The notes under the pieces: model-generated
Database searches by the model: none
Told to the model about the DNA's origin: nothing
The model's input: only the letters and a program-made list of their open reading frames with translations
DNA from: Hydrogenophaga intermedia
GTDB taxonomy: Bacteria; Pseudomonadota; Gammaproteobacteria; Burkholderiales; Burkholderiaceae_C
Assembly (NCBI GenBank): GCA_943372305.1
Contig: CALRYD010000017.1
Span: forward strand, 11,321-75,320
DNA length: 64,000 nucleotides
Direction of reading: 5' to 3'
Position numbers and translations under genes: made by a program
Shown: positions 16,800 through 30,666 of the stretch, piece after piece
How positions within the stretch are numbered: position 1 is the stretch's first letter
How the letters are laid out: each line of letters begins with the position of its first letter

Positions 16800-17268
<469 letters not shown>

Positions 17269-17294
<26 letters not shown>

Positions 17295-18596: not shown

Positions 18597-18668
18597 AAGC
18601 GCCGCAAATAAAGTCGCATTCATTCCCGCAAACATTTGACTTTTCCTTTTCAAGTCATAGACTTGCGC

Positions 18669-19904
18669 ATGGATAAAAAGTCGCAAACATTCCCGCTATA
18701 CGACCATCCGTCCCAGATGGAGCCGCTGCTGCCCGGCGAGCACCGCCTGGGGCCGTTGCTGGAGCAAGCGCACGACCTCATCCGCCAGTCGGACCGGCTC
18801 GCAGGCCTGTGCCAGCCCGGCGCTCTCAGCGGCTTGCGGCGACTGCTGCGGGCCATGAACTCGTACTACTCCAACAAGATCGAGGGCCAGCACACCCTGC
18901 CGCTGGAGATTGAACAGGCCCTGCGCAACGACTATGCGCAAGACGCCGAAAAGGCGCGCCGCCAGCGCCTGGCCCTGGCCCACATGGCCACCGAACAGCA
19001 ACTGGAAACCCTGTGGCCGCAGTGGGACAGCGCTCAGGTGTGGTCACCGCAGACGGTGCAGGACATCCACCAGGACCTGTTTGCCCGCCTGCCCGCCACC
19101 GACCGCTTGCTGCCCCCGTCAGACGGCGCACAGGCCAGCGCGGAACTGAAGCCGGGCGAACTGCGCACACAGGAAGTGAGCGTGGGCCGGCACGCCGCGC
19201 CGGTGGCGGTGCAGTTGCCCGCCTTCCTCGCGCGCTGGTCGCAGGTGTACGGACAGGTTCGACGCGGCGAAATGCAGGTGCTGGCCATGGCCGCCGCCCA
19301 CCACCGGCTGGCGTGGATTCACCCCTTTCGCGATGGCAACGGCCGCGTCGCCCGCCTGCACAGCCACCTGGTACTGGGCCAACTGGGCTTGACCAACGGG
19401 CTGTGGTCCCCGCTGCGCGGCTTTGCCCGCACACAGGACGCGTACTACGCCCAGTTGGCCGCGGCGGACGAACCGCGTGCGGGCGACCTGGACGGTCGCG
19501 GAAACCTGAGCGAGCGAGCCTTGGAGCAGTGGATGGCCTACACCCTGGGCGTTTGCCTGGACCAAGTGGACTTCATGACACGCACGCTGGCCCTGGACGG
19601 GATGAAAGACCGCATGGCCGCCTGCCTGGCCTATGAAGAGCAGGTGGTGAAACAAGGGGTGCGCAGCGAAGCCCTGCGTGCGCTGCACTACCTGTTCGCC
19701 ACCCAGAGCGAGCTCGATCGCGCCGACTTCAAGGCCCTGCTCGGCCTGGGCGAACGCCTGGCCACCGCGCAAGTGAGCGCCCTGCTCAAACGCGGCCTGC
19801 TGGAAAGCGACACGACCTACGGCAAGCTGCGCCTGGGCGTGCCGCAACACGCGCTGCGCTTTTACTTTCCGCGGTTGTGGCCGGAGGCCGAAGCGCAAGC
19901 TTGA
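18669..19904 (+). CDS. Fic family protein (putative AMP-transferase) with N-terminal inhibitory helix motif
   Basis: Canonical Fic motif HPFRDGNGRVAR at 19320-19355. S-x-x-x-E-G motif (SNKIEG) at 18870-18887, N-terminal to the core. ATG at 18669. Confidence 0.9.
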   Translation: MDKKSQTFPLYDHPSQMEPLLPGEHRLGPLLEQAHDLIRQSDRLAGLCQPGALSGLRRLLRAMNSYYSNKIEGQHTLPLEIEQALRNDYAQDAEKARRQRLALAHMATEQQLETLWPQWDSAQVWSPQTVQDIHQDLFARLPATDRLLPPSDGAQASAELKPGELRTQEVSVGRHAAPVAVQLPAFLARWSQVYGQVRRGEMQVLAMAAAHHRLAWIHPFRDGNGRVARLHSHLVLGQLGLTNGLWSPLRGFARTQDAYYAQLAAADEPRAGDLDGRGNLSERALEQWMAYTLGVCLDQVDFMTRTLALDGMKDRMAACLAYEEQVVKQGVRSEALRALHYLFATQSELDRADFKALLGLGERLATAQVSALLKRGLLESDTTYGKLRLGVPQHALRFYFPRLWPEAEAQA

Positions 19905-19919: not shown

Positions 19920-20201
19920 TCAACGGCCCGAACCGCCGGCAAACCGCAACGCCGAACGCTCCCGCGCCTTCTGCGCTTCCACCTCGCGGTTCTTCGGCTC
20001 GGCGTTCGTCACCAGCGACTGGATCAACCGCCGCGCCGAATCTGCCACCTCGGCCACCGCGCGGTCAAACGCTTCTTCGTTCGCCTTGCTCGGCACGCTG
20101 AACCCGCTGAGCTTGCGCACGAACTGCAGCGAAGCATCGCGAATCTCCAGTTCGCTCGCGGGCGGCTCGAAGTTGAACAGGGTCTTAATGTTGCGGCACA
20201 T
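19920..20201 (-). CDS. DUF2277 domain protein
   Basis: 93 aa from the ATG at 20201 (MCRNIKTLFNFEPPASELEIRDASLQFVRKLSGF...), the conserved start of this small protein family. Confidence 0.75.
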   Translation of the reverse strand: MCRNIKTLFNFEPPASELEIRDASLQFVRKLSGFSVPSKANEEAFDRAVAEVADSARRLIQSLVTNAEPKNREVEAQKARERSALRFAGGSGR

Positions 20202-20597
20202 GAGTGGCTCCTGCAGGGGAACAATCGAGGGTTGGGATAGGTTTTGATTCGTTGACATGGCGCGACCCTTAGCAAACTTCCGCTTGGCCGTTATCACACC
20301 CCCTCAGCTGCCAGTCCGACCATAGCGCGGACCCCCGTTTGTGGGTTCGCGGCGCAAAGCTTGAGGCATTGCGGGCTCGCCAATAGGGGTGGTCTCCCGT
20401 GCAGACCGTGGGCTGTTTACTCTGGCCCTGGCATACGCGGAAGGTCACTCTTGTTCACAATGCTCTTGCCTTCTTTTTGGAACAGTTCACGCTTTGCCGC
20501 CTGTTTCAGCGGCGCCATGCGACCTTCGTCGTGCTGGTCAAAGTAGCTGCCACCGTGTTTTTGTAGGCAAGGATCGACAGTTAAAGTTAAAGAACAA

Positions 20598-20641
20598 AAC
20601 AACTTCGTTTTAAAACACTTGCGTTTTAAAACGAAGTTGTT
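20598..20641. promoter_or_regulatory. nested perfect palindrome (candidate operator or hairpin) upstream of the island's first gene
   Basis: AACAACTTCGTTTTAAAAC-ACTTGC-GTTTTAAAACGAAGTTGTT, with 19-bp perfect arms. Each arm contains the self-complementary 10-mer GTTTTAAAAC. It sits in a stretch of about 30% G+C (hand count, 20581-20660), 16 nt upstream of the AGGAGGA Shine-Dalgarno of the 20668 ORF. Confidence 0.6.
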
Positions 20642-20667
20642 TAGATTGACGATCTCTAGGAGGATGC

Positions 20668-21849
20668 ATGATCGACTATACGACCAAGACTTATGGCAGA
20701 AATCAGGAGGTTGAGGCCATCTACAAGATGTTCCTTAACGATCGCGACGTCGCGATGCCTGGACCAAGGCGACTCGGCAAGACCTTTGTACTCGAGAGAA
20801 TCGTTGACCGCGGCGCCGCCAACGGATGGCATGCCGTGAAGGTCGAAATAGCAGGTTGCACAGATGTGCGCTCTGTCTTCAAGCGCCTGTGCGAGACGAT
20901 TGGCAGACGGCAAACCGGTGGCACGAAGGTCATTTCATGGCTGCGCCAGCACCTCGGACAAATCGTGTCGCCTCGTTCTGACCCAAGTGGGCCGTGGTAT
21001 CAGCCTTTGCTGAGCTTGGACTTCGAAACCTGGTTCGAGAGACTCATTCGCGCGATGAACGACGACACATCGCATAGGTGGGCGCTGCTGATCGACGAAT
21101 TGCCGATCTTCCTGAAGGCGCTGCACGATCGCGGACCAGAGGGCGTGGCACAGGCGCTCAGTTTTATGAACCTGATTAGCCGGCTACGCGACGACAACAA
21201 GCGCGTTCGCTGGCTGATCACAGGGTCGATCGGCATCGAGCCGCTCGCCCGAGCGGGCAACTACATGGGCGTTCTCGCAAAGTTCGACACCTTCGAGCTT
21301 GAGCCATTGACGGAAATGGACGCTCGGAACTATGTCCAGGACCAAGCCACCATGGGCCGTCTGCCCGGCCGCAGCGTCATTACCGACACCGAGGCCACCG
21401 CCATCGTGGCCGCCGTTGGTTGGCGAGCGGCCTACTACCTCGACGCGCTGGCGCAAAAGATGACCGGCCAACCCAGCAACGACCCCGCCGAAGCGGCTCA
21501 GCTGGTGGAGCAAGCGGTTGAAACTCTGCTGAAGCCAGTACATGCGGCTTCCTTCGGAACCTGGGAAGAGCACATCCGCAAACATTACCGCGACCCGGAA
21601 CGAGGCCTCGCGTTTTCCGCCCTGGCAGCCCTTGCACCACACCCTCAGGGGCGATCGATAGACACTGTCCTCACCACCATCGGCCGTGCCGATCTGACAC
21701 GAGTGCAGTTACAGGCGGTCCTCACCCGGCTGCACACCGAAGGCTTTGTCACGGTGCAAGATTGGGATGGCCCTGATCCGACAGCCGCTTTCAGAAACCC
21801 GCTGCTGCGCCGCTGGTGGCAGCGCTACACGCCACAGGCGAATGGGTGA
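20668..21849 (+). CDS. AAA ATPase, Arch_ATPase (PF01637)-like, with C-terminal winged-helix-like region
   Basis: Walker A GPRRLGKT (20761-20784), Walker B ALLIDELP, and the family-typical segment FELEPLTEMDARNYV. Strong SD sequence and lower GC than the flanks (about 51% over the first 120 nt by hand count). Confidence 0.8.
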   Translation: MIDYTTKTYGRNQEVEAIYKMFLNDRDVAMPGPRRLGKTFVLERIVDRGAANGWHAVKVEIAGCTDVRSVFKRLCETIGRRQTGGTKVISWLRQHLGQIVSPRSDPSGPWYQPLLSLDFETWFERLIRAMNDDTSHRWALLIDELPIFLKALHDRGPEGVAQALSFMNLISRLRDDNKRVRWLITGSIGIEPLARAGNYMGVLAKFDTFELEPLTEMDARNYVQDQATMGRLPGRSVITDTEATAIVAAVGWRAAYYLDALAQKMTGQPSNDPAEAAQLVEQAVETLLKPVHAASFGTWEEHIRKHYRDPERGLAFSALAALAPHPQGRSIDTVLTTIGRADLTRVQLQAVLTRLHTEGFVTVQDWDGPDPTAAFRNPLLRRWWQRYTPQANG

Positions 21850-21861
21850 GGCAGATCGACG

Positions 21862-24800
21862 ATGGACCTCACCTTCTTCAACCCACGCTCGCAAAGCGAG
21901 GCGGACTTCATTGCAAGCTTCGTTGCCCGAGCCAGCACGCTTGAGTTTTTTTTGCGGCAGTTGCAGCAACTCGGGCCAGATGAGGCAGCGCGTCATCAAC
22001 TCGTCGTTGCGCCGCGCGGGTTTGGCAAGACATCGTTGCTGCGCCGCATTGCGATTGCTGTGCGGGCAGACGACACCATGTGCAAGCGATACGTTCCGCT
22101 CTCATTCAGGGAAGAGCAGCACAACGTCATCAGTCTGGACGTGTTCTGGCGCAATTGCCTGCAATCGCTGCTGGAAGCACGCGAGGAAGAACAAGCCAGC
22201 CAAGAGGAGCTTGATGCCATCGATATGGCGTGGGTGCGGTTGGCTCCACGCCAATCTTTGACGCGCGAGGCCCAGGATGGTGAACCCGCCTGGCAGGAGT
22301 TCAGCCAACGATGCATGGAGATGGATCGTCGCCCCATCCTGTTGATCGACAACCTGGACACGCTGCTGGCGGGGCTTGGAAAAGACCACCTGTGGTCGTT
22401 GCGCCAAACGCTGCAAAGGTCCGACGGACCCGTGGTGATCGCTGCCGCTTCGCGCTACCCTGAATCGACGCACGACCCGGAAGCGGCTTTCTACGACTTT
22501 TTCCGAATCCACACCCTGGATCGGCTGGAGGACAACGAAGTTCTGTTGTGTCTTCGAACGCTGGCCCGCCACCGCGGCGAGGCAGGCAGGCCAGTGTTGG
22601 CATTGCTGGACAGCGACCCGGGTCGCGTGGCCGCGCTCAATACACTGGCCGGCGGCAACCCGCGAACCTTGGGTGTGCTGTATGGCGTGCTTGAGTCGCA
22701 CATGAGCACCGACGTGCTGTCGCAACTCAGCGCCATGCTCGACACCTTCACCGGCTGGTACCAGGCCCGTACCGAAGAACTGCCGATGCAGGCACGCGCG
22801 GTGTTCGATGCGCTGGCGCTGAATTGGGATCCGATGACGGCAGCTGCCGTTGCCCAAACCACGGGACTGGAGACCGCAGCCGTCAGCAGCCAGTTGTCGC
22901 GTCTTGAAAAGCTGGGCTATGTTGAGCCCGTGGCGCTTAGCCGTCGCGGCAAAGGCCGCAGCGGCTTCCAGGTCGTTGAGCGCTTTTTCAATATCTGGTA
23001 CCTCATGCGCAACGGACCCCGGCGCACGCGCCAGAGCATCAAGTTCTTGACCGTCTTTCTTCAGTCCTGTTTCAGTGCGCCTGAACGGCGATCACTGGGC
23101 CGCCAGGTGCTCGGTGTTGAACGCGTCGACCCAGGTTACGCGCTGGCACTGGCATCGACTTTCCGAGACGGGCCCATTCGGGAGCAGCTGCTGCAGAGAG
23201 CCGAGGCAGCGTCTTCACAATCGACAGGGGCAGACGAATACCAAAAACTGATTCGATCCTTACAGCCACAGCCGAATCGAGGGGGGATGGACAGTTCTGC
23301 CCCGGATTCGGGCGACGAAGCCGCGACCCTTGGGGAATCGCAAGTCGACACCAATCTCAATGCGAGTTTGCAGAAGGACCCTCATCAGCCCGAAGAGCAT
23401 GCCGAACTGGCTGCCGCGTTGCAGCATGGGCGGAATCTGCGGAAGCAAGGTCTGGGTGTTGAAGCACTGGCGGTTTTTGACAGCGCCTTAAGTCAGTGGG
23501 GTCAATCGACCGACGTGGCTTTGCACGAGCAGGTTGCACGAGCCATGGTCAACAAGGGCTTCACCCTCGGCCAGTTGGGCCGACGCGAAGAAGCGCTTGT
23601 GGTCTACGACAGCGTGGTGAGCCGGTTCGGTGAGGCCCCTGAACCGGCCTTGCGCGAATGGGTTGCACAAGCCCTGTTCTATAAGGGCGTCACCCTCGGC
23701 GAGTTGGGCCGAAGCGAAGAAGCGCTTGTGGTCTACGACAGCGTGGTGAGCCGGTTTGGTGAGGCCCCTGAACCGGCTTTGCGCGAAGAGGTTGCACGCG
23801 TCCTGTTCAACAAGGGCTTCACCCTCGGCCAGCTGGGCCGGCGTGAAGAAGCGCTTGCGGTCTACGACAGCGTGGTGAGCCGGTTTGGTGAGGCCCCTGA
23901 ACCGGCTTTGCGCGAACAGGTTGCACGCGCCCTGGTCAACAAGGGCGTCACCCTCGGCGAGTTGGGCCGACGCGAAGAAGCGCTTGTGGTCTACGACAGC
24001 GTGGTGAGCCGGTTTGGTGAGTCCCCTGACCCGGCTTTGCGCGAACAGGTTGCACGCGTCCTGTTCAACAAGGGCGTCACCCTCGGCCAGCTGGGCCGGC
24101 GCGAAGAAGAGCTTGCGGTCTACGACAGCGTGGTAAGCCGGCTTGGTGAGGCCCCTGAACCGGCCTTGCGCGAATGGGTTGCACAAGCCCTGCTCTATAA
24201 GGGCTTCATCCTCGGCCAGTTGGGCCGAAGCGAAGAAGCGCTTGTGGTCTACGACAGCGTGGTGAACCGTTTTGGTGAGGCCCTTGAACCGGCTTTGCGC
24301 GAACAGGTTGCACGCGCCCTGTTCTATAAGGGCTTCACCCTCGCCCAACTGGGCCAACGCGAAGAAGCGCTTGCCGTCTACGACAGCGTGGTGAACCGTT
24401 TTGGGGAGGCCCCTGAACCGGCTTTGCGCGAACTGGTTGCACGCGTCCTGGTCAACAAGGGCGTCACCCTCGGCGAATTGGGCCGAAGCGAAGAAGCGCT
24501 TGGGGTTTGCGACAGCGTGGTGAACCGGTTTGGTGAGGCCCCTGAACCGGCTTTGCGCGAACTGGTCGTTCTTGCGGAAAAGTGCAAGGCCAACACCCTG
24601 GTTGAGGCTGGGCAGATCGATGAAGCCGAGGCGGTACTGCGCAGCGGCATTGGGCGCCGGCCAGAGAATGCGGGCCTGTGGAACAGCCTGGGCAACCTGT
24701 TGCTGGATGCGAAAGGCGATTCCGCAGCAGCCGAAATGGCCTATCTGCAAGGGCTATCGGCTGCAAATGCTGACGACAGCTCGGCCGTCCTGCACGCCAA

Positions 24801-25302
24801 CTGCGCGTATGTGATGGCTCTTCACACTAACAATCACCCCATGGCGCTGGAACACATGCAGCAGGCGCTGGCCCACGAAGAGAGGGGCTTAAGCACTGCT
24901 GGACGACACCTGCTGTCCGCCTTACCAAATTCAAGCAATACAGACGCGGTGCAATGGGCAAGCATGTTCGATGGCATCGGTCGCGCGGTCGAATGTGGTG
25001 ACCCTTCGCTCTGGACAAACTACTTTGACGACCTGCAAAGGCTGTTGTGGTTCGCGATCGCGCACAAACAAGGGGATCGCTTGCGCGAATGGATGATTGC
25101 CCAAGACTACCCCCTGCGCCAGGCGCCGCTGTACCACGCCGTTGTGGCGGCCATTGAAGGAGAAGACCATCTGCTTCAAATAAACCCGGAAACACGCACG
25201 CCTGCAAGGCGCATCTTTCAAGGACTGGCCCGCCGGTTGCAGCTCTATGCCACGGAACCCAAGAAGCAGCCTCGCCGCCGAACTGGCCCGCCCGTTCAAT
25301 GA
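21862..25302 (+). CDS. STAND-like P-loop NTPase with wHTH and a 43-aa TPR-like repeat array
   Basis: 1146 aa. Walker A APRGFGKT (22009-22032), Walker B ILLIDNLD, and a MarR-like wHTH (VAQTTGLETAAVSSQLSRLEKLGYVEP). Then 8 near-identical 43-aa repeats plus degenerate TPR-like units and a helical C-terminal region of unknown function. Starts 12 nt after the upstream ATPase gene. Confidence 0.85.
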   Translation: MDLTFFNPRSQSEADFIASFVARASTLEFFLRQLQQLGPDEAARHQLVVAPRGFGKTSLLRRIAIAVRADDTMCKRYVPLSFREEQHNVISLDVFWRNCLQSLLEAREEEQASQEELDAIDMAWVRLAPRQSLTREAQDGEPAWQEFSQRCMEMDRRPILLIDNLDTLLAGLGKDHLWSLRQTLQRSDGPVVIAAASRYPESTHDPEAAFYDFFRIHTLDRLEDNEVLLCLRTLARHRGEAGRPVLALLDSDPGRVAALNTLAGGNPRTLGVLYGVLESHMSTDVLSQLSAMLDTFTGWYQARTEELPMQARAVFDALALNWDPMTAAAVAQTTGLETAAVSSQLSRLEKLGYVEPVALSRRGKGRSGFQVVERFFNIWYLMRNGPRRTRQSIKFLTVFLQSCFSAPERRSLGRQVLGVERVDPGYALALASTFRDGPIREQLLQRAEAASSQSTGADEYQKLIRSLQPQPNRGGMDSSAPDSGDEAATLGESQVDTNLNASLQKDPHQPEEHAELAAALQHGRNLRKQGLGVEALAVFDSALSQWGQSTDVALHEQVARAMVNKGFTLGQLGRREEALVVYDSVVSRFGEAPEPALREWVAQALFYKGVTLGELGRSEEALVVYDSVVSRFGEAPEPALREEVARVLFNKGFTLGQLGRREEALAVYDSVVSRFGEAPEPALREQVARALVNKGVTLGELGRREEALVVYDSVVSRFGESPDPALREQVARVLFNKGVTLGQLGRREEELAVYDSVVSRLGEAPEPALREWVAQALLYKGFILGQLGRSEEALVVYDSVVNRFGEALEPALREQVARALFYKGFTLAQLGQREEALAVYDSVVNRFGEAPEPALRELVARVLVNKGVTLGELGRSEEALGVCDSVVNRFGEAPEPALRELVVLAEKCKANTLVEAGQIDEAEAVLRSGIGRRPENAGLWNSLGNLLLDAKGDSAAAEMAYLQGLSAANADDSSAVLHANCAYVMALHTNNHPMALEHMQQALAHEERGLSTAGRHLLSALPNSSNTDAVQWASMFDGIGRAVECGDPSLWTNYFDDLQRLLWFAIAHKQGDRLREWMIAQDYPLRQAPLYHAVVAAIEGEDHLLQINPETRTPARRIFQGLARRLQLYATEPKKQPRRRTGPPVQ
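23518..24600 (+). repeat. 129-bp in-frame tandem repeat array (8 full units plus degenerate flanks) inside the 1146-aa gene
   Basis: Unit starts read directly at 23518, 23647, 23776, 23905, 24034, 24163, 24292, 24421 and 24550 (GCYTTGCGCGAA...). Protein consensus is ALREQVARALVNKGVTLGELGRREEALVVYDSVVSRFGEAPEP. Confidence 0.9.
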
Positions 25303-28300
25303 AAGTCCCGGCTCTCCGGCGCCAGCCGGCCCAGCAGCGAGTTGAGGTTTTCCAGGCGGCCGGCGATCAGGTTGCAGACGGCGCCGTCGCGTTGCCAGAC
25401 GCCGTGCACGCCAAGCAGGCGTGAGCCGGTCAGTTCGCTGCGCTGGCGTTCGCGCAGCGCGCGCCAGACGATGACCTGCACGGTGCCGGTTTCGTCTTCC
25501 AGCGTCACGAAGACCACGCCCTTGGACGTGCCGGGCTGCTGGCGGCAGGTGACGATGCCGCAGGCGCGCACCAGGCGGCCGTCGGGCGCGTCTTTCAGTT
25601 GCTCGGCGGTCATGAAGCGGCGCGCGGCCAGCCGCTCGCGCAGCAGGGCCAGCGGGTGGCGGCGCAGGGTCAGGCCGGTGCTCGTGTAGTCCCAGACGAT
25701 GGCTTCGCCTTCGGGGGCTTCGTCGAGTTGCAGCGCGGTTTCGTTGACCGGTGCGCGGCGCAGCATGGCGGGCGCGGCCTGCAGGGCAGACGCGTCCCAC
25801 ACCTGCTGGCGGCGGTGGCCAGCCAGGCTGTGCAGGGCGTCACCGGCGGCCAGTTGCTGCAGGGTCTGGCGGTCGAGCTGCGCGCGCAGGGCCAGATCCT
25901 CCGTGCTGGCAAATGGACCACTGGCGCGCGCCGCGCTGATGCGTTGCGCCTCTTCTTTCGACAGGCCGCTGACCAGCCGCAGCCCCAGCCGCACCGCCGG
26001 GTGACCCGGCATGTCCGGTGTGGGCATGTCTTCGAGCGTGCAGTCCCAGTCGCTGTGACCCACATCGGTCGGCCGCACCACCACGCCGTGGCGCTGCGCG
26101 TCCTGCACCAGCTGGCTGGGCGAGTAGAAGCCCAGCGGCTGGCTGTTGAGCATGGCGGCCAGGAATTCGGCCGGGTGGTGGTGCTTGATCCAGCAGCTGT
26201 CGTAGACCAGCAGCGCGAAGCTGACCGCGTGGCTTTCGGGGAAGCCGTAGCTGGAGAAGCCCTTGACCTGTTCGACCACGCGCTGCGCGAATTCGAGCGG
26301 GTAGCCGCGCGTGGTCATGCCGTCGATGAGCCGGAGCTCGTAGGCGCCCAGGCCGCCGTTGCGGCGCCAGGCGCCCATGGCGCGGCGCAGGCCGTCGGCC
26401 TCGCCGGGGGTGAAGCCGGCCGCGATCATGGCGATCTGCATGCACTGCTCCTGGAACACCGGCACGCCCAGCGTGCGCTCCAGCGCGGCTTCCAGGCCCT
26501 TGGGGTAGTCGACCGCTTCCAGGCCCTGGCGGCGCCGCAGGTAGGGGTGCACCGCGCCGCCCTGGATGGGGCCGGGCCGCACCAGCGCGACCTCGACCAC
26601 CAGGTCGTAAAACGTGCGCGGCCGCAGGCGCGGCAGCATGGCCATCTGCGCGCGGCTCTCGATCTGGAACACGCCCACGGTGTCGGCGGCGCAGATCATG
26701 TCGAAGGTGGCTGGGTCCTTGTCGGGAATCTGGTGCAGCGCCATGGACCGGCCGCGCCGCTGGCCGATGAAGTCCAGCGACTTGCGGATGGCCGTCAGCA
26801 TGCCCAGCGCCAGCACATCGACCTTGAGCAGACCCATGGCGTCGAGGTCGTCCTTGTCCCACTGGATGACGGTGCGGTCGGGCATGGACGCGTTCTCGAT
26901 CGGCACCAGCCGCGCCAGCGGGCCGCTGGTGAGCACGAAGCCGCCAGTGTGCTGCGAGAGGTGGCGCGGGAAGCCCAGCAGCTGCTTCACGAGCGTGACG
27001 AACTGGCGCGCCGCCAGACTGTCCGGGTCCAGACCGGCTTCGCGCAGGCGCTCGTGTGCCAGGCCGTCTTCGCTCCACCAGCGGTGGTCTTTTGCCAGCC
27101 GCTCCAGCAGGGCGTCGTCAAAGCCCAGGGCCTTGCCCACGTCGCGCACGGTGCTGCGCGGGCGGTAGCGGATGACGGTGGCGGTGAGCGCGGCGCGGTC
27201 GCGCCCGTACTTGCGGTAGAGGTACTGAATCACCTCTTCGCGCCGCTCGTGTTCGAAGTCCACGTCGATGTCGGGCGGCTCGTTGCGTTCGCGCGAGATG
27301 AAGCGTTCGAACAGCAGCGAAGAGCGTGCTGGGTCCACCGCGGTGATGCCCAGGCAGTAGCAGACCGCGCTGTTGGCGGCCGAGCCACGGCCCTGGCAGA
27401 GGATGCCCTGCGAGCGCGCAAAAGCCACGATGTCGTGCACGGTGAGGAAGTAGTGCTCGTAGCCCAGCTCGGTGATGAGGGCAAGCTCGTGTTCGATCTG
27501 GTCGCGCACTTTGGGCGGCACGCCATCGGGCCAGTGCGCGGCGGCGCCGGCTTCGGTGAGCGCGCGCAGGTGCTGCGCCGGCGTGCGGCCGGGCGGCACC
27601 ACCTCGGCCGGGTACTGGTAGCGCAGTTCGTCCAGCGTCCAGCCGGTGCAGCGCTGCGCGACCACCAGGGTCTGCGCCAGCAGCTCGGGCGGGAAGCACT
27701 GGGCCAGCCGCACGCGGGTGCGCAGGTGCTGTTCGGCGTTGGGGGTGAGGGCGAAGCCGCAGTCGGTCAGCGGCCGGCCGACGCGGGTGGCGGTCAGCAC
27801 GTCCTGCAGGGCCTTGCGCGAGCGCACGTGCATGTGCACGTCACCCACCGCCACCAGTGGCACGGCGGTGTGGGCGCTGGCCTCGCGCAGGCGGTGCAGG
27901 TGGATGGCGTCGTCCAGCCGGCGCAGCTGCGTCACGCCCAGCCAGCAGCGGCCCAGAAAGGCGCCGAGCAGCCAGCGCGCAGTGGCGTCGCACTGCGCCT
28001 GGCTGGCGCTGCGCAGCGGCACGGCGATGGCCACGCAGTCGCCCAGCGCAGCGGGGTCCACACCGGCCAGCGCCAGGTGGTACGTGCCCTTGTCGGCCGC
28101 GCGCCGCAGCCGCGTGATGAACTCGCACAGGTGGCCGTAGCCGTGCAGGCTGGTGGCCAGCAGCACCAGGGTGAAGTCGCCGGTGGGCGCCGCCCCGCCC
28201 TGCACGCGGAACTGGCTGCCCACGATGAGCGGCAACGCGTGTTTTTTGGCCGCCACATGGGCCTGCGCGATGCCGGCCATGGAACATTCGTCGGTGATGG

Positions 28301-28418
28301 CCAGCGCGGTGTAGCCCATGGCCTTGGCGCGCGGGACCAGCTCGTCCGGGTGGCTGGCGCCGCGCAGAAAGGTGAAGCTGGAGCAGCACAGCAGCTCGGC
28401 GTGGTCGGGCAGGGACAT
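25296..28418 (-). CDS. dnaE2: error-prone DNA polymerase DnaE2 (ImuC)
   Basis: 1040 aa with an N-terminal PHP domain (HAELLCCSSFTFLRGASHPDELV) and a pol III alpha core. Downstream of imuA-imuB. Confidence 0.95.
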   Translation of the reverse strand: MSLPDHAELLCCSSFTFLRGASHPDELVPRAKAMGYTALAITDECSMAGIAQAHVAAKKHALPLIVGSQFRVQGGAAPTGDFTLVLLATSLHGYGHLCEFITRLRRAADKGTYHLALAGVDPAALGDCVAIAVPLRSASQAQCDATARWLLGAFLGRCWLGVTQLRRLDDAIHLHRLREASAHTAVPLVAVGDVHMHVRSRKALQDVLTATRVGRPLTDCGFALTPNAEQHLRTRVRLAQCFPPELLAQTLVVAQRCTGWTLDELRYQYPAEVVPPGRTPAQHLRALTEAGAAAHWPDGVPPKVRDQIEHELALITELGYEHYFLTVHDIVAFARSQGILCQGRGSAANSAVCYCLGITAVDPARSSLLFERFISRERNEPPDIDVDFEHERREEVIQYLYRKYGRDRAALTATVIRYRPRSTVRDVGKALGFDDALLERLAKDHRWWSEDGLAHERLREAGLDPDSLAARQFVTLVKQLLGFPRHLSQHTGGFVLTSGPLARLVPIENASMPDRTVIQWDKDDLDAMGLLKVDVLALGMLTAIRKSLDFIGQRRGRSMALHQIPDKDPATFDMICAADTVGVFQIESRAQMAMLPRLRPRTFYDLVVEVALVRPGPIQGGAVHPYLRRRQGLEAVDYPKGLEAALERTLGVPVFQEQCMQIAMIAAGFTPGEADGLRRAMGAWRRNGGLGAYELRLIDGMTTRGYPLEFAQRVVEQVKGFSSYGFPESHAVSFALLVYDSCWIKHHHPAEFLAAMLNSQPLGFYSPSQLVQDAQRHGVVVRPTDVGHSDWDCTLEDMPTPDMPGHPAVRLGLRLVSGLSKEEAQRISAARASGPFASTEDLALRAQLDRQTLQQLAAGDALHSLAGHRRQQVWDASALQAAPAMLRRAPVNETALQLDEAPEGEAIVWDYTSTGLTLRRHPLALLRERLAARRFMTAEQLKDAPDGRLVRACGIVTCRQQPGTSKGVVFVTLEDETGTVQVIVWRALRERQRSELTGSRLLGVHGVWQRDGAVCNLIAGRLENLNSLLGRLAPESRDFH

Positions 28419-28427
28419 CGCAACACG

Positions 28428-29825
28428 TCAGGAAAAAAAGCCATGCAGAAACCAGGCCGGTTCTTCGGCCAGCCGGGTCTGGAACACCCACAGCAGCCCG
28501 GCCTGCGCGGACGCGGCCACCCAGTAGTCCCGCACCGCGTGGCGGGTGTGGCCCAGGGCCTCGTCGCGGTCCCACCAGCCGCCTTCCACGCGCTGCGGGC
28601 CCAGCAGCAATTGCAGTTCGCCCTGGTAGAGCGGGCGGTGCTGGCGCACCAGCAGCTTCAGCGGTTGCGGCAGCACAAAGGCCGGTTGCGGCAGGCCGGG
28701 GCCGAACGCGATCTCGGCGTCGTGACCGTCCAAAGCGGACGGGCGCCGGGGCAGGGCCTGGCCGGCGGCCTGCCAGCGGCACATGTGTTCGGGCCGGTGG
28801 TCGTCCACCAGCACCGGGCGTTGCACACGGTCCGGCCCCAGGCGCACGGCGATGCGCTCCAGCGCGTTGGACAGGCTCTCGCCCTCGGCCTGCGCGTCGT
28901 CGGGCAGCCAGGACGCGCTGCACGGGGCCAGCGGGCGCACCTCGTCGGCCACCAGGCGCAGGTCGCCCACCGGCGCGGCCAGGGTGATACGGGCCAGGTG
29001 CTCGGCCAGCAGGCGGCCGAGGTGGTCCACATCGCGCGTGGGGTCGGCGGTGCGCACGGTGAGCTGCCCGCCCTCGCCCGCGCCGCGCGAGCGCATCGCG
29101 TCGTGCGCCCAGTGCAGGGTGAAGGCGGTCACGCCGGCCTGCCGCGCGGCCAGCCAGCCGGCCAGTTGCAGCAGCAGGCGGCGCGCGCCGACCACCAGCG
29201 CGGCGGCGTCGTCCACCCGGTGCGGCAGTTCCAGCCGGGCGTCAAACACCGCCGGCGTCTGCACCCAGGTGTGGGTCTGCGGTGCGTGGCCATAGAGCTG
29301 GTCCAGCGCGTGCAGCAGCGCGGCGTCGAAGCGGCGCGCCAGGCCGGCGCGCGGCAGGCGGCGCAGCTGGCCCAGGCTGCGGCAGCCGATGTGGGCCAGC
29401 GTCTGGCGGTGCGGCGCGGTGGCGCTGAGCACGGCCAGCGGCAGCGGGTCCAGCTGCGCCGCCAGCGGCAACGGATCGGCCGGCTCCGCCATGCCGGCCA
29501 GACCGGCGCGGGCCAGCGCCAGCGCGGCCAGGCTGTTGGGCGCCCAGGCGATGCGCGCGGCGCCCAGTTCGGTGGCTTCGGCCCGCACCCGCTCGCGCAG
29601 GGCGGCAGCACCGCCGAACAGGCGCAGGCTGGCCGCCACCTCCAGCACCACGGCCTCGTCCAGCCGGGCCACGCGCGGCGTGAAGCGCAGCGCCCACAGG
29701 GCCAGCGCCTGCGCGGTCGCGTCGGCCCGGCCGGCCGCCTGGGCACAGGCGTCGGCACGGGCCTGGGCGCCGGCGGCGGCGTCAATGCCAGGCGGCGGGG
29801 GCGGCAGCAGGGCGGACCACCACAT
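28428..29825 (-). CDS. imuB: Y-family polymerase-like protein ImuB
   Basis: 465 aa, positioned between imuA and dnaE2. N-terminal region resembles Y-family polymerases (LALWALRFTPRVA...LEVAASLRLFGG). Confidence 0.85.
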   Translation of the reverse strand: MWWSALLPPPPPGIDAAAGAQARADACAQAAGRADATAQALALWALRFTPRVARLDEAVVLEVAASLRLFGGAAALRERVRAEATELGAARIAWAPNSLAALALARAGLAGMAEPADPLPLAAQLDPLPLAVLSATAPHRQTLAHIGCRSLGQLRRLPRAGLARRFDAALLHALDQLYGHAPQTHTWVQTPAVFDARLELPHRVDDAAALVVGARRLLLQLAGWLAARQAGVTAFTLHWAHDAMRSRGAGEGGQLTVRTADPTRDVDHLGRLLAEHLARITLAAPVGDLRLVADEVRPLAPCSASWLPDDAQAEGESLSNALERIAVRLGPDRVQRPVLVDDHRPEHMCRWQAAGQALPRRPSALDGHDAEIAFGPGLPQPAFVLPQPLKLLVRQHRPLYQGELQLLLGPQRVEGGWWDRDEALGHTRHAVRDYWVAASAQAGLLWVFQTRLAEEPAWFLHGFFS

Positions 29826-30666
29826 GGGCGTCTTCCTCGCGGGGGTGTGCCGGGGCCGGGGGCACAGGGGCCGGGCGCCACCGCGGCGGCAGCAGTGCGG
29901 CCAGGCCGCCGGGCACCGACGGCAGGCTCAGCGTGCGCGCCAGCGGCGGGCCGGGGCGTTTGAGCACATCGACCTGCAGCGACCAGGGGCCGTCGTCCGC
30001 CCCCGCCGCCCCCACCCGCACCAGCAGGCGCAGCGGTGCGGCCGAGGCTTCACGCGCCGCGGCTTGCGGTCGGCACACGAACACCGGGCCCTGCGCCGCG
30101 CCGGCAAGCACCTGCAGGCGGCGCAGCTGCTCGGGCCGGGCCTGCGGCAGCCAGGCCACCAGCACGCCCGGCGCGCGGGCCTTGAGCAGCTGCTCGGTGG
30201 TCCACAGGCGTTCGGCCGTGGTGTCGGCCTGCAGCCAGACCAGACCGCGTTCGCTGATGCCGTCGGCCCGCAGGCCGGGCGGGTGCGGGCGGTGCGGCGG
30301 CCCGACCAGCAGCACCGGGCTGGCGGCGGCCAGGCGGGCCGCGCCACCGGCGGAGCACAGGGTGCGCAGCAGCGGCGCGAGCAGGCGCCATTCCAGCGTG
30401 CCGGGCTGGGGGCACAGCAGCTCGGTCAGGCCCTGGCAGGGCCAGCCGCCGCCGGGCAAGGCAGCGTCGAGCACGTCAAAGCCGCTGGACCGGGTGGGCA
30501 GGGCCGCACGGCCCAGCTGGTCGCCGCGCCAGACGGCGGCGGCCACGGCCGGCGGCAGGGCGGCCACAGTCGACAAGGCCGCCTCAAGGGCGGCCGTGGC
30601 GGGGGGTGGGTGGGCCAGCGGCGGGGCGGCCGCTGGCGGCGGGACAAGGGGCAACATGGTGCCCAC
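29782..30666 (-). CDS. imuA: translesion DNA synthesis-associated protein ImuA (RecA/SulA-like)
   Basis: 294 aa with the ...SGFDVLDAALPGGGWPCQGLTELL... motif typical of ImuA. It is the first gene after the LexA box. Start is GTG at 30666 or ATG at 30657. Confidence 0.82.
   Translation of the reverse strand: MGTMLPLVPPPAAAPPLAHPPPATAALEAALSTVAALPPAVAAAVWRGDQLGRAALPTRSSGFDVLDAALPGGGWPCQGLTELLCPQPGTLEWRLLAPLLRTLCSAGGAARLAAASPVLLVGPPHRPHPPGLRADGISERGLVWLQADTTAERLWTTEQLLKARAPGVLVAWLPQARPEQLRRLQVLAGAAQGPVFVCRPQAAAREASAAPLRLLVRVGAAGADDGPWSLQVDVLKRPGPPLARTLSLPSVPGGLAALLPPRWRPAPVPPAPAHPREEDAHVVVRPAAAPAAWH

Follow-up and report, generated by a model that had tools for sequence, protein, structure and literature searches.

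Does a pair of ATPase genes beside dnaE2 in Hydrogenophaga intermedia form a sensing or defence module, and if so, what is its output? The DNA analysed here, referred to as the window, comprises 64,000 nt (assembly GCA_943372305.1, contig CALRYD010000017.1, positions 11,321-75,320, forward strand). An earlier note had described two co-oriented ORFs 12 nt apart behind an AGGAGGA Shine-Dalgarno sequence; both ORFs were present at these positions, and all motifs quoted for them were found in the translations (Table 1). The cassette consists of three parts, an operator array, ORF1 and ORF2, and the ORF2 stop codon overlaps the 3' end of the convergent dnaE2 gene by 7 nt. The hand-counted GC values proved exact (0.30 at 20581-20660, 0.508 across the first 120 nt of ORF1), but the gene-wide drop is modest (0.60-0.61 in the cassette genes versus 0.665 in the whole window; left flank 0.654, right flank 0.679, dnaE2 0.71). 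The shift in composition is unambiguous at third codon positions, where the GC3 of the two cassette genes is 0.71 and 0.69 compared with 0.83-0.93 in six flanking genes.

Table 1. Features of the cassette (window coordinates; residues refer to the respective ORF)
Feature	Position	Strand	Residue	Remarks
Operator-like array	20596-20643	.		three abutting 16-bp palindromes AAAAC-N6-GTTTT (20596-20611, 20612-20627, 20628-20643)
Putative core promoter and RBS	20642-20664	+		inferred; TAGATT -10-like element at 20642-20647 overlaps last operator half-site
SD AGGAGGA	20658-20664	+		precedes ORF1
ORF1	20668-21849	+		393 aa; upstream gene of the pair
ORF1 Walker A GPRRLGKT	20761-20784	+	32	motif search
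ORF1 conserved, unmodelled insert		+	83-116	
ORF1 Walker B LLIDELP	21085-21105	+	140	D143, E144; motif search
ORF1 ITGSIG motif		+	from 184	
ORF1 FELEPLTEMDARNYV		+	209	motif search
ORF1 winged helix		+	~311-375	
ORF1 invariant C-terminal motif FRNPLLRRWWQRY	21790-21828	+		
ORF2	21862-25302	+		1146 aa; downstream gene of the pair
ORF2 N-terminal STAND module	21862-23265	+	1-468	
ORF2 Walker A APRGFGKT	22009-22032	+	50	motif search
ORF2 family signature FREEQHNVISLDVFWRNC		+	from 82	
ORF2 Walker B ILLIDNLD	22336-22359	+	159	DN, catalytic Glu missing; motif search
ORF2 GxP motif GGNPRTL	22651-22671	+	264	motif search
ORF2 MarR-like winged helix		+	~306-370	recognition helix VSSQLSRLEK at 22882-22911
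ORF2 signature ERFFNIWYLMRNGPRR		+	from 373	
ORF2 TPR-like repeat array	23517-24566	+		Tandem Repeats Finder: period 129 nt, 8.1 copies, 88% matches
ORF2 conserved C-terminal cap	24562-25302	+	~901-1146	degenerate TPRs and helical core
ORF2 cap, family-specific helical core	24778-25299	+		motif APLYHAxxAAIEGEDHLLxINPETR

The two genes belong together. An ORF2 homolog follows the ORF1 homolog in 28 of the 28 loci with downstream DNA (27 among L001-L039 plus the window, some being duplicate or near-identical copies), which bears out both the co-occurrence of the pair elsewhere and the obligate nature of the second ATPase proposed before. Computed gaps measure 5-37 nt; the exceptions, L020 (-4 nt) and L010 (1052 nt), stem from an inexact stop call, and the matches in L010 actually lie about 30 nt apart. 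Even where ORF1 identity has fallen to 22-30%, the two genes stay paired, with examples from Gallionellaceae, Moraxella and Clostridium plasmids, and no third conserved gene was found in the neighbourhoods of the cassette loci. The divergences of ORF1 and ORF2 are correlated with r = 0.93 over 276 locus pairs, a value reached in none of 2000 Mantel permutations, which shows at the level of sequence divergence that both co-evolve; from this co-inheritance, an interaction between ORF1 and ORF2 is predicted. Some members of the ORF2 family occur solo, so ORF1 is dispensable for part of the superfamily.

Only 31 cassette loci, scattered over phyla, were detected among 185,579 species representatives, and the neighbourhoods differ even between cassettes of 82-84% identity, as expected for the accessory island that had been postulated instead of a fixed locus. 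In L040, a 122-nt direct repeat lies on both sides of the cassette, and several copies are pseudogenised. Among the 72,556 plasmids searched, four records had an ORF1-like and nine an ORF2-like match. The cassette was not found in 2.9 million viral contigs, which is neutral as to a defence role. Judged by this distribution and by its low GC3, it is a horizontally mobile accessory insertion, rare and patchy across phyla.

ORF1, for which over 280 homologs of similar length (about 393 aa) were found, is a minimal P-loop ATPase with a helical lid and a winged helix (NBD-HD-WHD). The best Foldseek match of its AF2 model (pLDDT 82) was Pyrococcus abyssi PAB2304 (PDB 2qen, TM 0.60/0.66) of the PF01637 family (ATPase_2/'Arch_ATPase'), in line with the Arch_ATPase-like character noticed earlier; Orc1/Cdc6, CED-4 and plant NLR resistosomes were matched as well, all at only 12-15% identity. 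In the Pfam search, ORF1 of the window gave no PF01637 match at E ≤ 0.1. The distant ORF1-like partners in L044 and L045 reached 26.8 and 32.8 bits, the latter just below the 33.2-bit cut-off. The order ATPase-lid-winged helix is common to ORF1, PAB2304 and archaeal Orc1/Cdc6; unlike these, ORF1 invariably comes with a STAND-TPR partner, and the origin or replication role of archaeal Orc1/Cdc6 is not evidenced for it.

For ORF2, profile searches and motif conservation agree on the anticipated STAND-type NTPase, in which a winged helix is followed by a TPR sensor array. Its Walker A, DN Walker B, GxP motif and winged helix are invariant across 25 loci. Pfam matches to AAA_16, NACHT, nSTAND5 and ORC-CDC6-like were sub-threshold or at threshold, and the winged helix scored 27.0 bits with MarR_2, at the cut-off; one homolog is annotated as 'MarR family transcriptional regulator'. 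From about residue 516 onwards, TPR_12 and related families exceed their Pfam cut-offs. The eight near-identical 43-aa units seen before lie in this region and were confirmed by Tandem Repeats Finder. At least 15 of the 43 columns are invariant at the protein level, and the differences between repeats cluster at unit positions 5, 8, 9, 11, 12, 15, 19, 23, 28, and 35, which we take to be the concave helix-A face of the TPR. The pN/pS among repeats is 1.0, with non-synonymous changes centred on about 10 of the 43 positions; the same ratio can also result when a few ancestral repeat types are duplicated in blocks, and repeats 2 and 6, likewise 3 and 5, are 95% identical. ORF2 lengths range from 741 to 1391 aa because the length of the array varies among homologs.

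The cap behind the repeats is conserved (32-54% identity across loci). The AF2 model of the C-terminus (about 250 aa) is all helical with a pLDDT of 92.7, as had been foreseen, and structural comparison yielded generic TPR matches only (TM ~0.5). The suggestion that the C-terminus of ORF2 is the output was not upheld, since the segment is a conserved TPR-like cap. In 1.84 billion proteins, the cap had 144 representatives, always C-terminal, and 60 of the 61 long matches contained an ORF2-type NTPase.

Upstream of ORF1, the earlier note had located the low-GC patch correctly but missed its palindromes. Comparative evidence identifies this 30%-GC patch as a conserved array of palindromic operator sites, newly described here, that moves along with the cassette and diverges in step with the proteins. 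It includes a perfect 20-nt inverted repeat (20597-20616/20623-20642), and the self-complementary decamer GTTTTAAAAC occurs in it twice (20607-20616 and 20623-20632). All three matches to AAAAC-N6-GTTTT in the 64 kb fall into the array (0.33 expected; three reached in 0 of 100 shuffles). With up to one mismatch, the decamer was matched 37 times in 5.3 kb of ORF1-upstream DNA versus five times in 526 kb elsewhere, and it is found upstream of ORF1 in 25 of 36 loci. Homology between near-orthologous cassettes starts at the array, and divergent clades carry different palindromes in the same position. A consensus scan upstream of ORF1 detected no canonical two-hexamer promoter; in many homologous loci, an extended -10-like TGnTAnnnT immediately follows the last half-site. 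Since the array travels and co-diverges with the proteins, the cassette probably autoregulates, with the ORF2 winged helix as candidate binder. This putative assignment is drawn from conservation patterns only: among loci sharing the operator, the recognition helix of ORF2 is conserved and that of ORF1 is not. In canonical STAND proteins, DNA is not bound by the WHD, which packs on the NBD. Given the operator array, the likely output shifts toward DNA binding and transcription and thus nearer to the 'regulatory STAND' formerly held as a fallback.

Searches with Pfam, PADLOC, NCBIfam, and PHROGs, as well as structural comparison of ORF1 and the ORF2 C-terminus, revealed no integrase, transposase, nuclease, TIR, protease, SIR2 or pore domain, and no effector domain was found in any family member. 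Neither protein matched a catalogued defence family (PADLOC, NCBIfam Avs/NLR models). The pair therefore lacks, as first described, both a recognisable effector and a counterpart among named defence systems. Of the proposed sensing or defence module, the STAND-type sensor architecture stands, but genomic context lends little support: a clear defence system lies within 5.5 kb of only one among the 20 chromosomal loci, and the neighbours are mostly housekeeping genes. Some loci have neighbours of the conflict type. A Type IIG R-M system neighbours L030; a Qat remnant, transposases, and a methylase lie near L044, VapBC and PhdYeFM near L001, and a Bil system adjoins the solo homolog in L042. An apparent DpdF/PsyrT neighbour was rejected as a housekeeping RecQ. 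Association with defence islands is weak, and enrichment was not demonstrated.

The cassette resembles Avs1-21 and bNACHT in the succession of P-loop NTPase, GxP helical domain, winged helix and long TPR-like sensor, in its patchy, HGT-driven distribution, and in its variable sensor repeats. Every characterised Avs or bNACHT has an effector, whereas cassette members carry none at either terminus, match no PADLOC or NCBIfam Avs/NLR model, need a separately encoded second ATPase, bring their own operator array, and lack demonstrated enrichment in defence islands. NAIP-NLRC4, plant sensor NLR-NRC pairs and the CED-4/Apaf-1 apoptosome likewise combine two NOD-type ATPases with ligand-sensing repeats in one of them. 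In fold, ORF1 resembles CED-4 and the NB-ARC modules of plant NLRs, and the DE Walker B in ORF1 versus DN in ORF2 suggests a division of labour. Unlike the helpers of such pairs, ORF1 is devoid of a CARD, a CC or any further death or pore domain; the likeness is an analogy of logic, with demonstrated homology limited to the shared STAND/AAA+ fold.

A mobile bacterial two-gene operon with a STAND core in both proteins and a predicted hetero-multimer is also known from the prediction of paired nSTAND2 NTPases (Kaur, Iyer, Burroughs, & Aravind, 2021, eLife, PMC8195603). These belong to another NTPase family, nearer CR-ATPases and S29/Dap3, and are fused to effector or GT4 domains, whereas the cassette is effector-free; one nSTAND2 partner has eroded NTP-binding motifs, whereas both Walker A motifs of the cassette are intact. 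ORF1, by contrast, is PF01637/ORC-like. MalT/LAL and AfsR/SARP-STAND regulators share the AAA_16-type NTPase and TPR-like sensor, and by comparison with them the tandem promoter sites suggest ligand-driven oligomerisation on DNA. The cassette differs from these regulators in lacking a LuxR-type or SARP/BTAD domain (its sole HTH is the winged helix of the NOD) and a linked regulon, in having a partner ATPase, and in acting as a mobile cassette.

We tentatively favour, at a probability of about 0.42, a horizontally mobile two-component switch of the STAND (NLR-like) type, self-contained and autoregulated, in which a sensor/helper pair has a DNA-level output. In the resting state, the MarR-like winged helix of ORF2 would sit on the abutting AAAAC-N6-GTTTT sites that overlap its own promoter and keep expression low. 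Capture of a protein or peptide ligand by the TPR solenoid would open the NTPase module of ORF2, which is probably slow and switch-like because of its DN-type Walker B. The opened ORF2 would nucleate a hetero-oligomer with ORF1, whose intact DE Walker B probably makes it the hydrolysing partner; such an assembly would be analogous to NAIP-NLRC4 and plant sensor-NRC pairs. Because the winged helices are the sole output-capable parts, the output would be exerted on DNA, either as derepressed or activated transcription or as ATP-dependent, ORC-like DNA engagement.

An ordinary signal-transducing STAND transcription factor like MalT, LAL or AfsR, without a conflict function, is a rather unlikely explanation, although it ranks next. 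The ORF2 TPRs would sense a small molecule or cellular protein, ORF1 would serve as a co-regulator or remodelling ATPase, and the targets would be AAAAC-N6-GTTTT promoters of the cassette and of unlinked host genes. This agrees with DNA binding as the sole recognisable output, the conserved multi-site operator, the MarR_2 score and annotation mentioned above, and the chiefly housekeeping or regulatory neighbourhoods. Moreover, 391 of 589 prokaryotic STAND clades have been classed as not defence-associated, transcription regulators included (PMC13581612). Yet target genes are not conserved in cis, the operator is unique in the window and nearly absent from the 526 kb of flanks, and a bare cross-phylum cassette at unrelated sites, often pseudogenised, lacks an obvious regulon. 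Nor does the cassette have a terminal domain dedicated to DNA binding (LuxR or SARP type) as in MalT and AfsR, and near-identical repeats with variable number and focused variation are atypical of metabolite sensors.

Mobility and the operator could also point to a toxin-antitoxin-like addiction or selfish module, in which one ATPase, if unchecked, inhibits growth, while its partner both neutralises this activity and, through the palindromic operator, represses their common promoter. The cassette would then be maintained by post-segregational or anti-loss effects, not because it senses invaders. Two tightly spaced or overlapping genes (11-nt), the co-diverging palindromes over the promoter, the patchy, HGT-driven spread on chromosomes and plasmids, the TA genes flanking L001, and the pseudogenised copies would fit. 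We nevertheless consider it improbable: both proteins are far bigger than usual TA components and match no known toxin fold, a variable TPR sensor of 500-900 aa would be superfluous for simple addiction, and plasmid copies are rare. A remnant replication or maintenance module, with ORF1 as an ORC/Cdc6-like initiator on iteron-like repeats and ORF2 as an accessory regulator, is highly improbable. Here, the AT-rich tandem 16-bp repeats directly upstream of ORF1 recall archaeal orc1/cdc6-origin arrangements, in which repeats precede the gene itself, ORF1 matches archaeal Orc1/Cdc6-DNA complexes in fold, and the direct repeat around L040 is compatible. However, no replicon, partition, integrase or relaxase genes co-travel with the mainly chromosomal cassette, which is rare on plasmids and was not found in viral contigs; no unwinding element is visible beside the 46-48-bp array, nor are further origin features, the ORF1 recognition helix is not conserved where the repeat sequence is shared, and the obligate TPR partner of 750-1400 aa is left unexplained.

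The cassette is best read as an uncharacterised sensing switch whose sole visible output is DNA binding. With the sensor/helper switch as the preferred reading, its biological role would most likely be a conflict function, plausible but unproven: it may sense proteins of phages or mobile elements, or confer addiction-type behaviour.

Together, ORF1 and ORF2 represent a genuine two-gene family, clearly delimited and hitherto uncharacterised, that carries its own cis operator. The anatomy of the cassette is established with high confidence. The coordinates, co-orientation and 12-nt spacing of the two genes and the AGGAGGA Shine-Dalgarno sequence reported in the earlier note were all confirmed, the motifs quoted there were found at their places, and the hand-counted GC values proved exact (0.30 at 20581-20660 and 0.508 in the first 120 nt of ORF1). 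The bulk GC content of both genes (0.60-0.61) shows a modest drop compared with the window-wide value of 0.665. The difference in GC3 is clear-cut (0.71 for ORF1 and 0.69 for ORF2 versus 0.83-0.93 in six flanking genes) and marks both genes as compositionally foreign. The stop codon of ORF2 overlaps that of the convergent dnaE2 gene by 7 nt. dnaE2 is part of what we take, on reading the translations, to be an imuA-like/imuB/dnaE2 mutagenesis cassette with a GC content of 0.71-0.79 and a GC3 of 0.90-0.93. Just upstream of the cassette lie genes for a Fic/DOC-family protein and a DUF2277 protein, whose GC3 of 0.83 is intermediate compared with 0.89-0.91 farther out; the two genes may belong to an older patch of accessory DNA.

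Coordinates of the cassette, its surroundings and related features at other loci
Feature	Locus	Position	Strand	Remarks
EVE/PUA-like (ASCH-type) domain protein	window	16800-17294	+	164 aa; presumed identity, by look of the sequence
Fic/DOC-family protein	window	18636-19904	+	422 aa; Pfam Fic 60.7 bits
DUF2277 protein	window	19920-20201	−	121 bits
Leader ORF	window	20417-20602	−	61 aa
Leader patch	window	20478-20560		counterpart at about 4190-4270 in L047
Operator	window	20596-20643		three abutting 16-bp AAAAC-N6-GTTTT sites
ORF1	window	20668-21849	+	393 aa
ORF2	window	21862-25302	+	1146 aa
Repeat array of ORF2	window	23517-24566		period 129 nt, 8.1 copies, 88% matches
Mutagenesis cassette	window	25296-30666	−	presumed identity
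dnaE2	window	25296-28418	−	presumed identity; downstream of ORF2
ImuB-like ORF	window	28428-29825	−	presumed identity
ImuA-like ORF	window	29782-30666	−	presumed identity
mutS	L040	8385-10985		downstream of ORF2
radA/sms-like gene	L041	8430-9800		downstream of ORF2
recQ	L024	14667-16463		downstream of ORF2
Direct repeat	L040	4637-4758 and 8397-8518		122 nt, 89% identical
Possible two-gene ATPase module	L001	2542-6011		364-aa and 807-aa products
Solo ORF2-family gene	L042	3099-5856		
Three-site array of phage contig	L043	1343-1392		AAAAC-N6-GTTTT AAAAC-N6-GTTTT AAAAC-N6-GTTAT
Operator	alphaproteobacterial loci			GAATATATTC-type
Operator	Moraxella			AACTATA-N4-TATAGTT, two copies
Operator	Clostridium			palindrome overlapping TTGACA box

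The 30%-GC patch upstream of ORF1, whose composition had been read correctly and whose nature as an operator had been missed, is a perfect 20-nt inverted repeat with three abutting palindromic sites. These are the only matches to the pattern in the 64-kb window (0.33 expected), and three or more were obtained in none of 100 shuffles. With up to one mismatch, the self-complementary decamer GTTTTAAAAC embedded in the operator has 37 occurrences within 150 nt upstream of the ORF1 homologues and five in the other 526 kb of the loci, an approximately 730-fold enrichment. It was found in 25 of 36 loci, relaxed GTTGT/ACAAC forms being present in most others, and divergent clades carry other palindromes at the same position. 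We regard the operator call itself as highly confident. Conservation across phyla and co-divergence with the proteins indicate that the reader of the operator is encoded within the cassette. The predicted recognition helix of ORF2 is conserved (VSSQLSRLE, VNAQLARLE) among loci sharing GTTTTAAAAC and altered in the clade with an altered operator, whereas that of ORF1 varies freely among loci sharing the array. Because only the ORF2 helix tracks the operator, operator reading is assigned to the winged helix of ORF2, which on these sequence patterns is the probable binding domain. In many loci, an extended −10-like element (TGnTAnnnT) directly follows the last half-site, an arrangement that suggests autorepression of the cassette through promoter occlusion. 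A consensus scan of the window revealed no canonical two-hexamer sigma-70 promoter, and the Rfam search over the palindrome returned noise only.

Two further observations concern the operator sequence and its surroundings. The leader patch upstream of the operator shows about 65% DNA similarity to the near-orthologous locus L047 and is missing in a further locus, L046; it may be the remains of a gene or, alternatively, a leader element under conservation. The minus-strand leader ORF covering this patch in the window was dismissed as a third gene because no intact counterpart is present in L047. The only viral match to the double-decamer motif, about what chance predicts for 20 specified bases, is located on an AT-rich phage contig (L043, IMG/VR contig IMGVR_UViG_3300010429_001620). 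Its array has the same abutting layout as the operator, a similarity that extends curiously far, and is situated in an intergenic region between ORFs that by eye resemble DNA methyltransferase and phosphoribosyltransferase genes; it could be a decoy site or the site of a related regulator.

ORF1 has more than 280 homologues, which form a tight family without a name; nearly all are 390-393 aa long, and the best 120 show 56-88% identity. Invariant or nearly invariant are Walker A (GPRRLGKTF), Walker B (LLIDELP, D143 and E144), ITGSIG and the C-terminal FRNPLLRRWW. Sequence searches for relatives of solved structure, including a profile search, yielded none, and a sequence-level match to ORC/Cdc6 initiators was likewise not obtained. 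The best Foldseek match of the AlphaFold2 model (pLDDT 82; the conserved insert at residues 83-116 is unmodelled) was the Pyrococcus Walker-type ATPase PAB2304 (2qen; E=2e-10, TM 0.60/0.66 over 394 columns). Archaeal Orc1/Cdc6 proteins (2qby, 1w5t, 2v1u, 1fnn; TM 0.42-0.53 with high rmsd), CED-4 and the NB-ARC modules of plant NLR resistosomes were among the other best matches. According to these matches, ORF1 is a bare ATPase-lid-winged-helix module with nothing attached. The modelled fold follows the PF01637/PAB2304 order of P-loop ATPase, helical lid and C-terminal winged helix. The window protein has no PF01637 match at E<=0.1 (Pfam cut-off 33.2 bits), two distant ORF1-like partners reach 26.8 and 32.8 bits, and a few close homologues carry precomputed matches. 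By structure, the model places ORF1 in the PF01637/PAB2304-like group, but its sequence score stays under the Pfam threshold.

The FVAR/Walker A region of ORF2 begins after a stretch of no more than about 18 residues. STAND hallmarks in the N-terminal 470 residues are invariant across 25 loci, namely Walker A (APRGFGKT, residue 50), Walker B (ILLIDNLD, residue 159), the GxP motif (GGNPRTL, residue 264; invariant or almost invariant) and a MarR-like winged helix. Both proteins have an intact Walker A without variation among the loci, and Walker B of ORF2 is of the DN type, in which the second acidic residue, the catalytic Glu, is missing. Further conserved family-specific signatures are FREEQHNVISLDVFWRNC and ERFFNIWYLMRNGPRR. 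A recent paralogy of ORF1 and the ORF2 N-terminus was discarded, as BLASTP gave nothing significant beyond Walker A. The winged helix (residues 306-370 approximately) scores 27.0 bits for MarR_2 at a cut-off of 27, and a profile search matched MarR structures; other than such winged helices, no sequence relatives of solved structure were found for ORF2. AAA_16 reaches 28.6 bits in the window protein (cut-off 32.6) and 34.5-41.9 bits, above the cut-off, in homologues, for which NACHT matches (27.5 and 30.2 bits versus 26.7) were also obtained; nSTAND5 remains at about 24 bits (cut-off 34). The TPRs start at about residue 516 (TPR_12 97 bits, with many other TPR families over the cut-off). By its motifs, domain order and repeat sensor, the protein is best classed as a putative member of the STAND superfamily. 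The last 250 residues or so, the cap, are 32-54% identical across the family. Its non-TPR core is rare (144 representatives in 1.84 billion proteins), is C-terminal in every case and is accompanied by an ORF2-type NTPase in 60 of 61 long matches. The earlier note had considered this C-terminus as a possible output. It was modelled confidently as an all-helical solenoid (pLDDT 92.7) with generic TPR proteins as the only structural matches, and the idea of a hidden effector was rejected on this basis. The idea of the cap as a dock for ORF1, present only beside it, was abandoned because the profile also matches solo homologues such as Variovorax terrae P0225.

The repeat array of ORF2 described in the earlier note was recovered by Tandem Repeats Finder. 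The eight 43-aa units are 84-95% identical in DNA, with a pN/pS of 1.0 over all unit pairs. The protein sequence does not vary in at least 15 columns, several of which (positions 1, 4, 20, 29, 34 and 36) show differences of the synonymous kind alone. Positions 5, 8, 9, 11, 12, 15, 19, 23, 28 and 35 account for about three quarters of the non-synonymous differences. Mapped onto the canonical register of TPRs by subtracting 6, unit positions 8, 11, 12, 15 and 19 would fall on TPR positions 2, 5, 6, 9 and 13, which we take to form the concave ligand-binding face of helix A. Units 2/6 and 3/5 are 95% identical, so that part of the variation pattern stems from duplicated blocks of a few repeat types. 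The array length is highly variable, and ORF2 homologues range from 741 to 1391 aa. Many metagenomic contigs with the cassette (L046, L047, L005, L006, L009, L010 and L014) end inside ORF2 or just past its start, consistent with assembly breaks in near-identical 129-nt repeats, so that database counts and lengths of ORF2 homologues are biased towards short-array or fragmentary versions.

A pattern scan of 185,579 species-representative genomes identified 31 ORF1 loci in Burkholderiales, Acidobacteriota, Verrucomicrobiota, Gemmatimonadota, Chromatiales, Methylococcales, Desulfobacterota and Alphaproteobacteria. The co-occurrence check proposed in the earlier note was clearly positive. An ORF2 homologue follows ORF1 in all 28 loci with downstream DNA (the window and 27 of the loci L001-L039, some of which are duplicate or near-identical copies). 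The computed gap is 5-37 nt, with two exceptions owed to an inexact stop call. Distant pairs missed by the scan are found in a Gallionellaceae MAG and another MAG, with 9-nt gaps, and, with an 11-nt overlap of the two genes, on plasmids from Moraxella osloensis and from Clostridium tagluense. The pairwise identities of ORF1 and of the ORF2 N-terminus are correlated (r=0.93, a value reached in none of 2000 Mantel permutations). Our confidence in the obligate pairing of ORF1 with ORF2 is high; a few ORF2-family members occur solo. An all-vs-all comparison of the flanking ORFs revealed no conserved third gene. The neighbourhoods are unlike in essentially every locus, including the closest relatives (82-84% ORF1 identity), in which homology to the window starts at the operator, and several copies are frameshifted or truncated. 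In the Gallionellaceae MAG (L040), a direct repeat duplicating the 3' end of mutS brackets the cassette and looks like a site-specific-integration scar; no integrase gene is located between the repeats. We are highly confident that the cassette is mobile. A phage-borne cassette was searched for in 2.9 million viral contigs, and none was found.

As regards the defence module proposed in the earlier note, housekeeping genes prevailed among 136 neighbours from 20 chromosomal loci, scanned with PADLOC HMMs and Pfam, which speaks against a defence-island setting in this sample; conflict-type neighbours are present at some loci. The only clear defence system was a Type IIG restriction-modification system in L030, besides one partial mad3 match, while neighbour matches to DpdF, PsyrT and BrxHI all collapsed to one housekeeping RecQ. 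A 2026 survey of prokaryotic STAND proteins, which classes 391 of 589 clades as not defence-associated, set its null for the presence of a defence system no more than 5 kb from a gene at 0.0153 (PMC13581612); against this value, one locus in 20 is not significant in the present small sample. On the Moraxella plasmid, the cassette is accompanied by a Qat remnant, transposases and a methylase. In L001 (Ca. Aalborgicola/Rhodoferax MAG) its neighbours include VapBC and Phd. About 4 kb upstream of the cassette in this MAG, a ParA/CbiA-like protein gene is followed by a gene for an AAA_16 protein, with VapBC, HTH_3/DUF6941 and Lipase_3 in between; the region resembles a small island of accessory or conflict genes. 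In Ramlibacter ginsenosidimutans (L042), a solo ORF2-family gene is divergently oriented beside a BilA/BilB-like/BilD ubiquitin-like anti-phage set, and two patatin-like phospholipase genes are located nearby. A convergent DNA repair or recombination gene lies directly downstream of ORF2 in four of about 20 loci; the downstream neighbours elsewhere are unrelated (gamma-glutamyl transpeptidase, Pat acetyltransferase, a HDOD-GGDEF protein). In our judgement this exceeds chance expectation, but the category was chosen post hoc; it could reflect an insertion-site preference or nothing. The pattern did not extend past four loci.

The mismatch to named systems anticipated in the earlier note was borne out: neither protein matched PADLOC or NCBIfam defence models, and an effector (nuclease, protease, TIR, SIR2, pore or other) was detectable neither in the window proteins nor in any relative examined, in agreement with its reading. 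Avs/AVAST proteins require a fused effector, whereas ORF2, with its short N-terminus and TPR-like C-terminus, carries none, and the same applies to its homologues. The Avs, NLR and bNACHT models of PADLOC v2 and NCBIfam, in a set without the Avs7-21 models of 2026, gave no hits; the best matches were wHTH or P-loop ones at noise level. Lacking both an effector and a model match, the cassette falls outside Avs/bNACHT. Among published systems, the nearest precedent for a mobile operon that encodes two STAND NTPases is the predicted nSTAND2 system (Kaur et al., 2021; PMC8195603), which the cassette resembles in the broad sense of a mobile two-gene operon with two STAND-core products. In contrast to the cassette, that system has fused effector/GT4 domains and eroded NTP-binding motifs in one partner. 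It probably also differs in NTPase lineage (nSTAND2/CR-ATPase/S29-Dap3), the ORF1 fold matching PF01637/ORC/CED-4 and not S29; the Pfam hits, from a library that may lack an nSTAND2 model, included none to nSTAND2. An origin-binding role as in ORC/Cdc6 initiators would be compatible with the upstream repeat array, but the recognition helix of ORF1 is not conserved among the loci sharing it. The logic of the cassette appears similar to that of sensor/helper NLR pairs.

Our preferred reading, to which we assign a probability of about 0.4, is that of an autoregulated sensor/helper STAND switch with DNA-level output, in which ORF2 would bind the operator and hetero-oligomerise with ORF1. One main rival, an ordinary STAND transcription factor, has the predicted operator-reading winged helix on its side. 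MalT/LAL regulators possess a C-terminal LuxR-type (or N-terminal SARP) DNA-binding domain; ORF2 has no GerE, LuxR or Trans_reg_C match, and its BTAD match (34.5 bits, residues 812-863) is confined to the TPR region. The cassette is therefore not a MalT/LAL regulator, as it has neither a LuxR nor a SARP domain. The other main rival is a selfish module resembling toxin-antitoxin systems. Type II systems are two-gene operons autoregulated through a palindromic operator; the cassette has two genes and a palindromic operator and may be autoregulated. The folds are ATPase/WH and TPR, and with no match to a toxin or antitoxin family the cassette is not a known system of this type. A role in conflict may be argued from a mobile, patchy, often pseudogenised and autonomous cassette, from the NLR-like variation of the ORF2 sensor and from the conflict-type neighbours at some loci; the missing effector, the lack of PADLOC/NCBIfam defence matches and the mostly housekeeping neighbours count against it. 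An effector-less immune or conflict receptor pair, which we consider improbable, would work as follows. Capture of a ligand by the hypervariable TPR array would cause ORF2 to leave its own operator, and the freed protein would act as a template on which the ORC/Cdc6-like ORF1 assembles onto DNA with the use of ATP. Instead of a nuclease, NADase, protease or pore, an AAA+/STAND oligomer bound to DNA would then serve as output and block replication or transcription of the invader or the cell. If this held, the cassette would be a bacterial NLR in which a DNA-loading ATPase of initiator-like type takes the place of the 'effector'.

In the bacterial NLR-like/STAND systems that have been characterised, to our knowledge, the sensor is coupled with a fused effector that acts as an enzyme or forms pores. 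The family departs consistently from this rule, with two NOD-type ATPases, no effector throughout and a cis operator that moves across phyla with the genes. Being small and well defined, it is experimentally tractable. If the cassette is a conflict system, it would represent a new output logic, in which a sensor/helper ATPase pair drives DNA engagement or a transcriptional switch, and a compact bacterial model of helper-NLR biology. If it is a regulator, it would be an unusual transcription factor spreading as a selfish, self-regulating cassette. At least four operator specificities are visible (AAAAC-N6-GTTTT, the GAATATATTC type, AACTATA-N4-TATAGTT and the Clostridium palindrome), and under either reading, pairs of operator and protein could be put to use as transcriptional parts that are orthogonal and ligand-gated.
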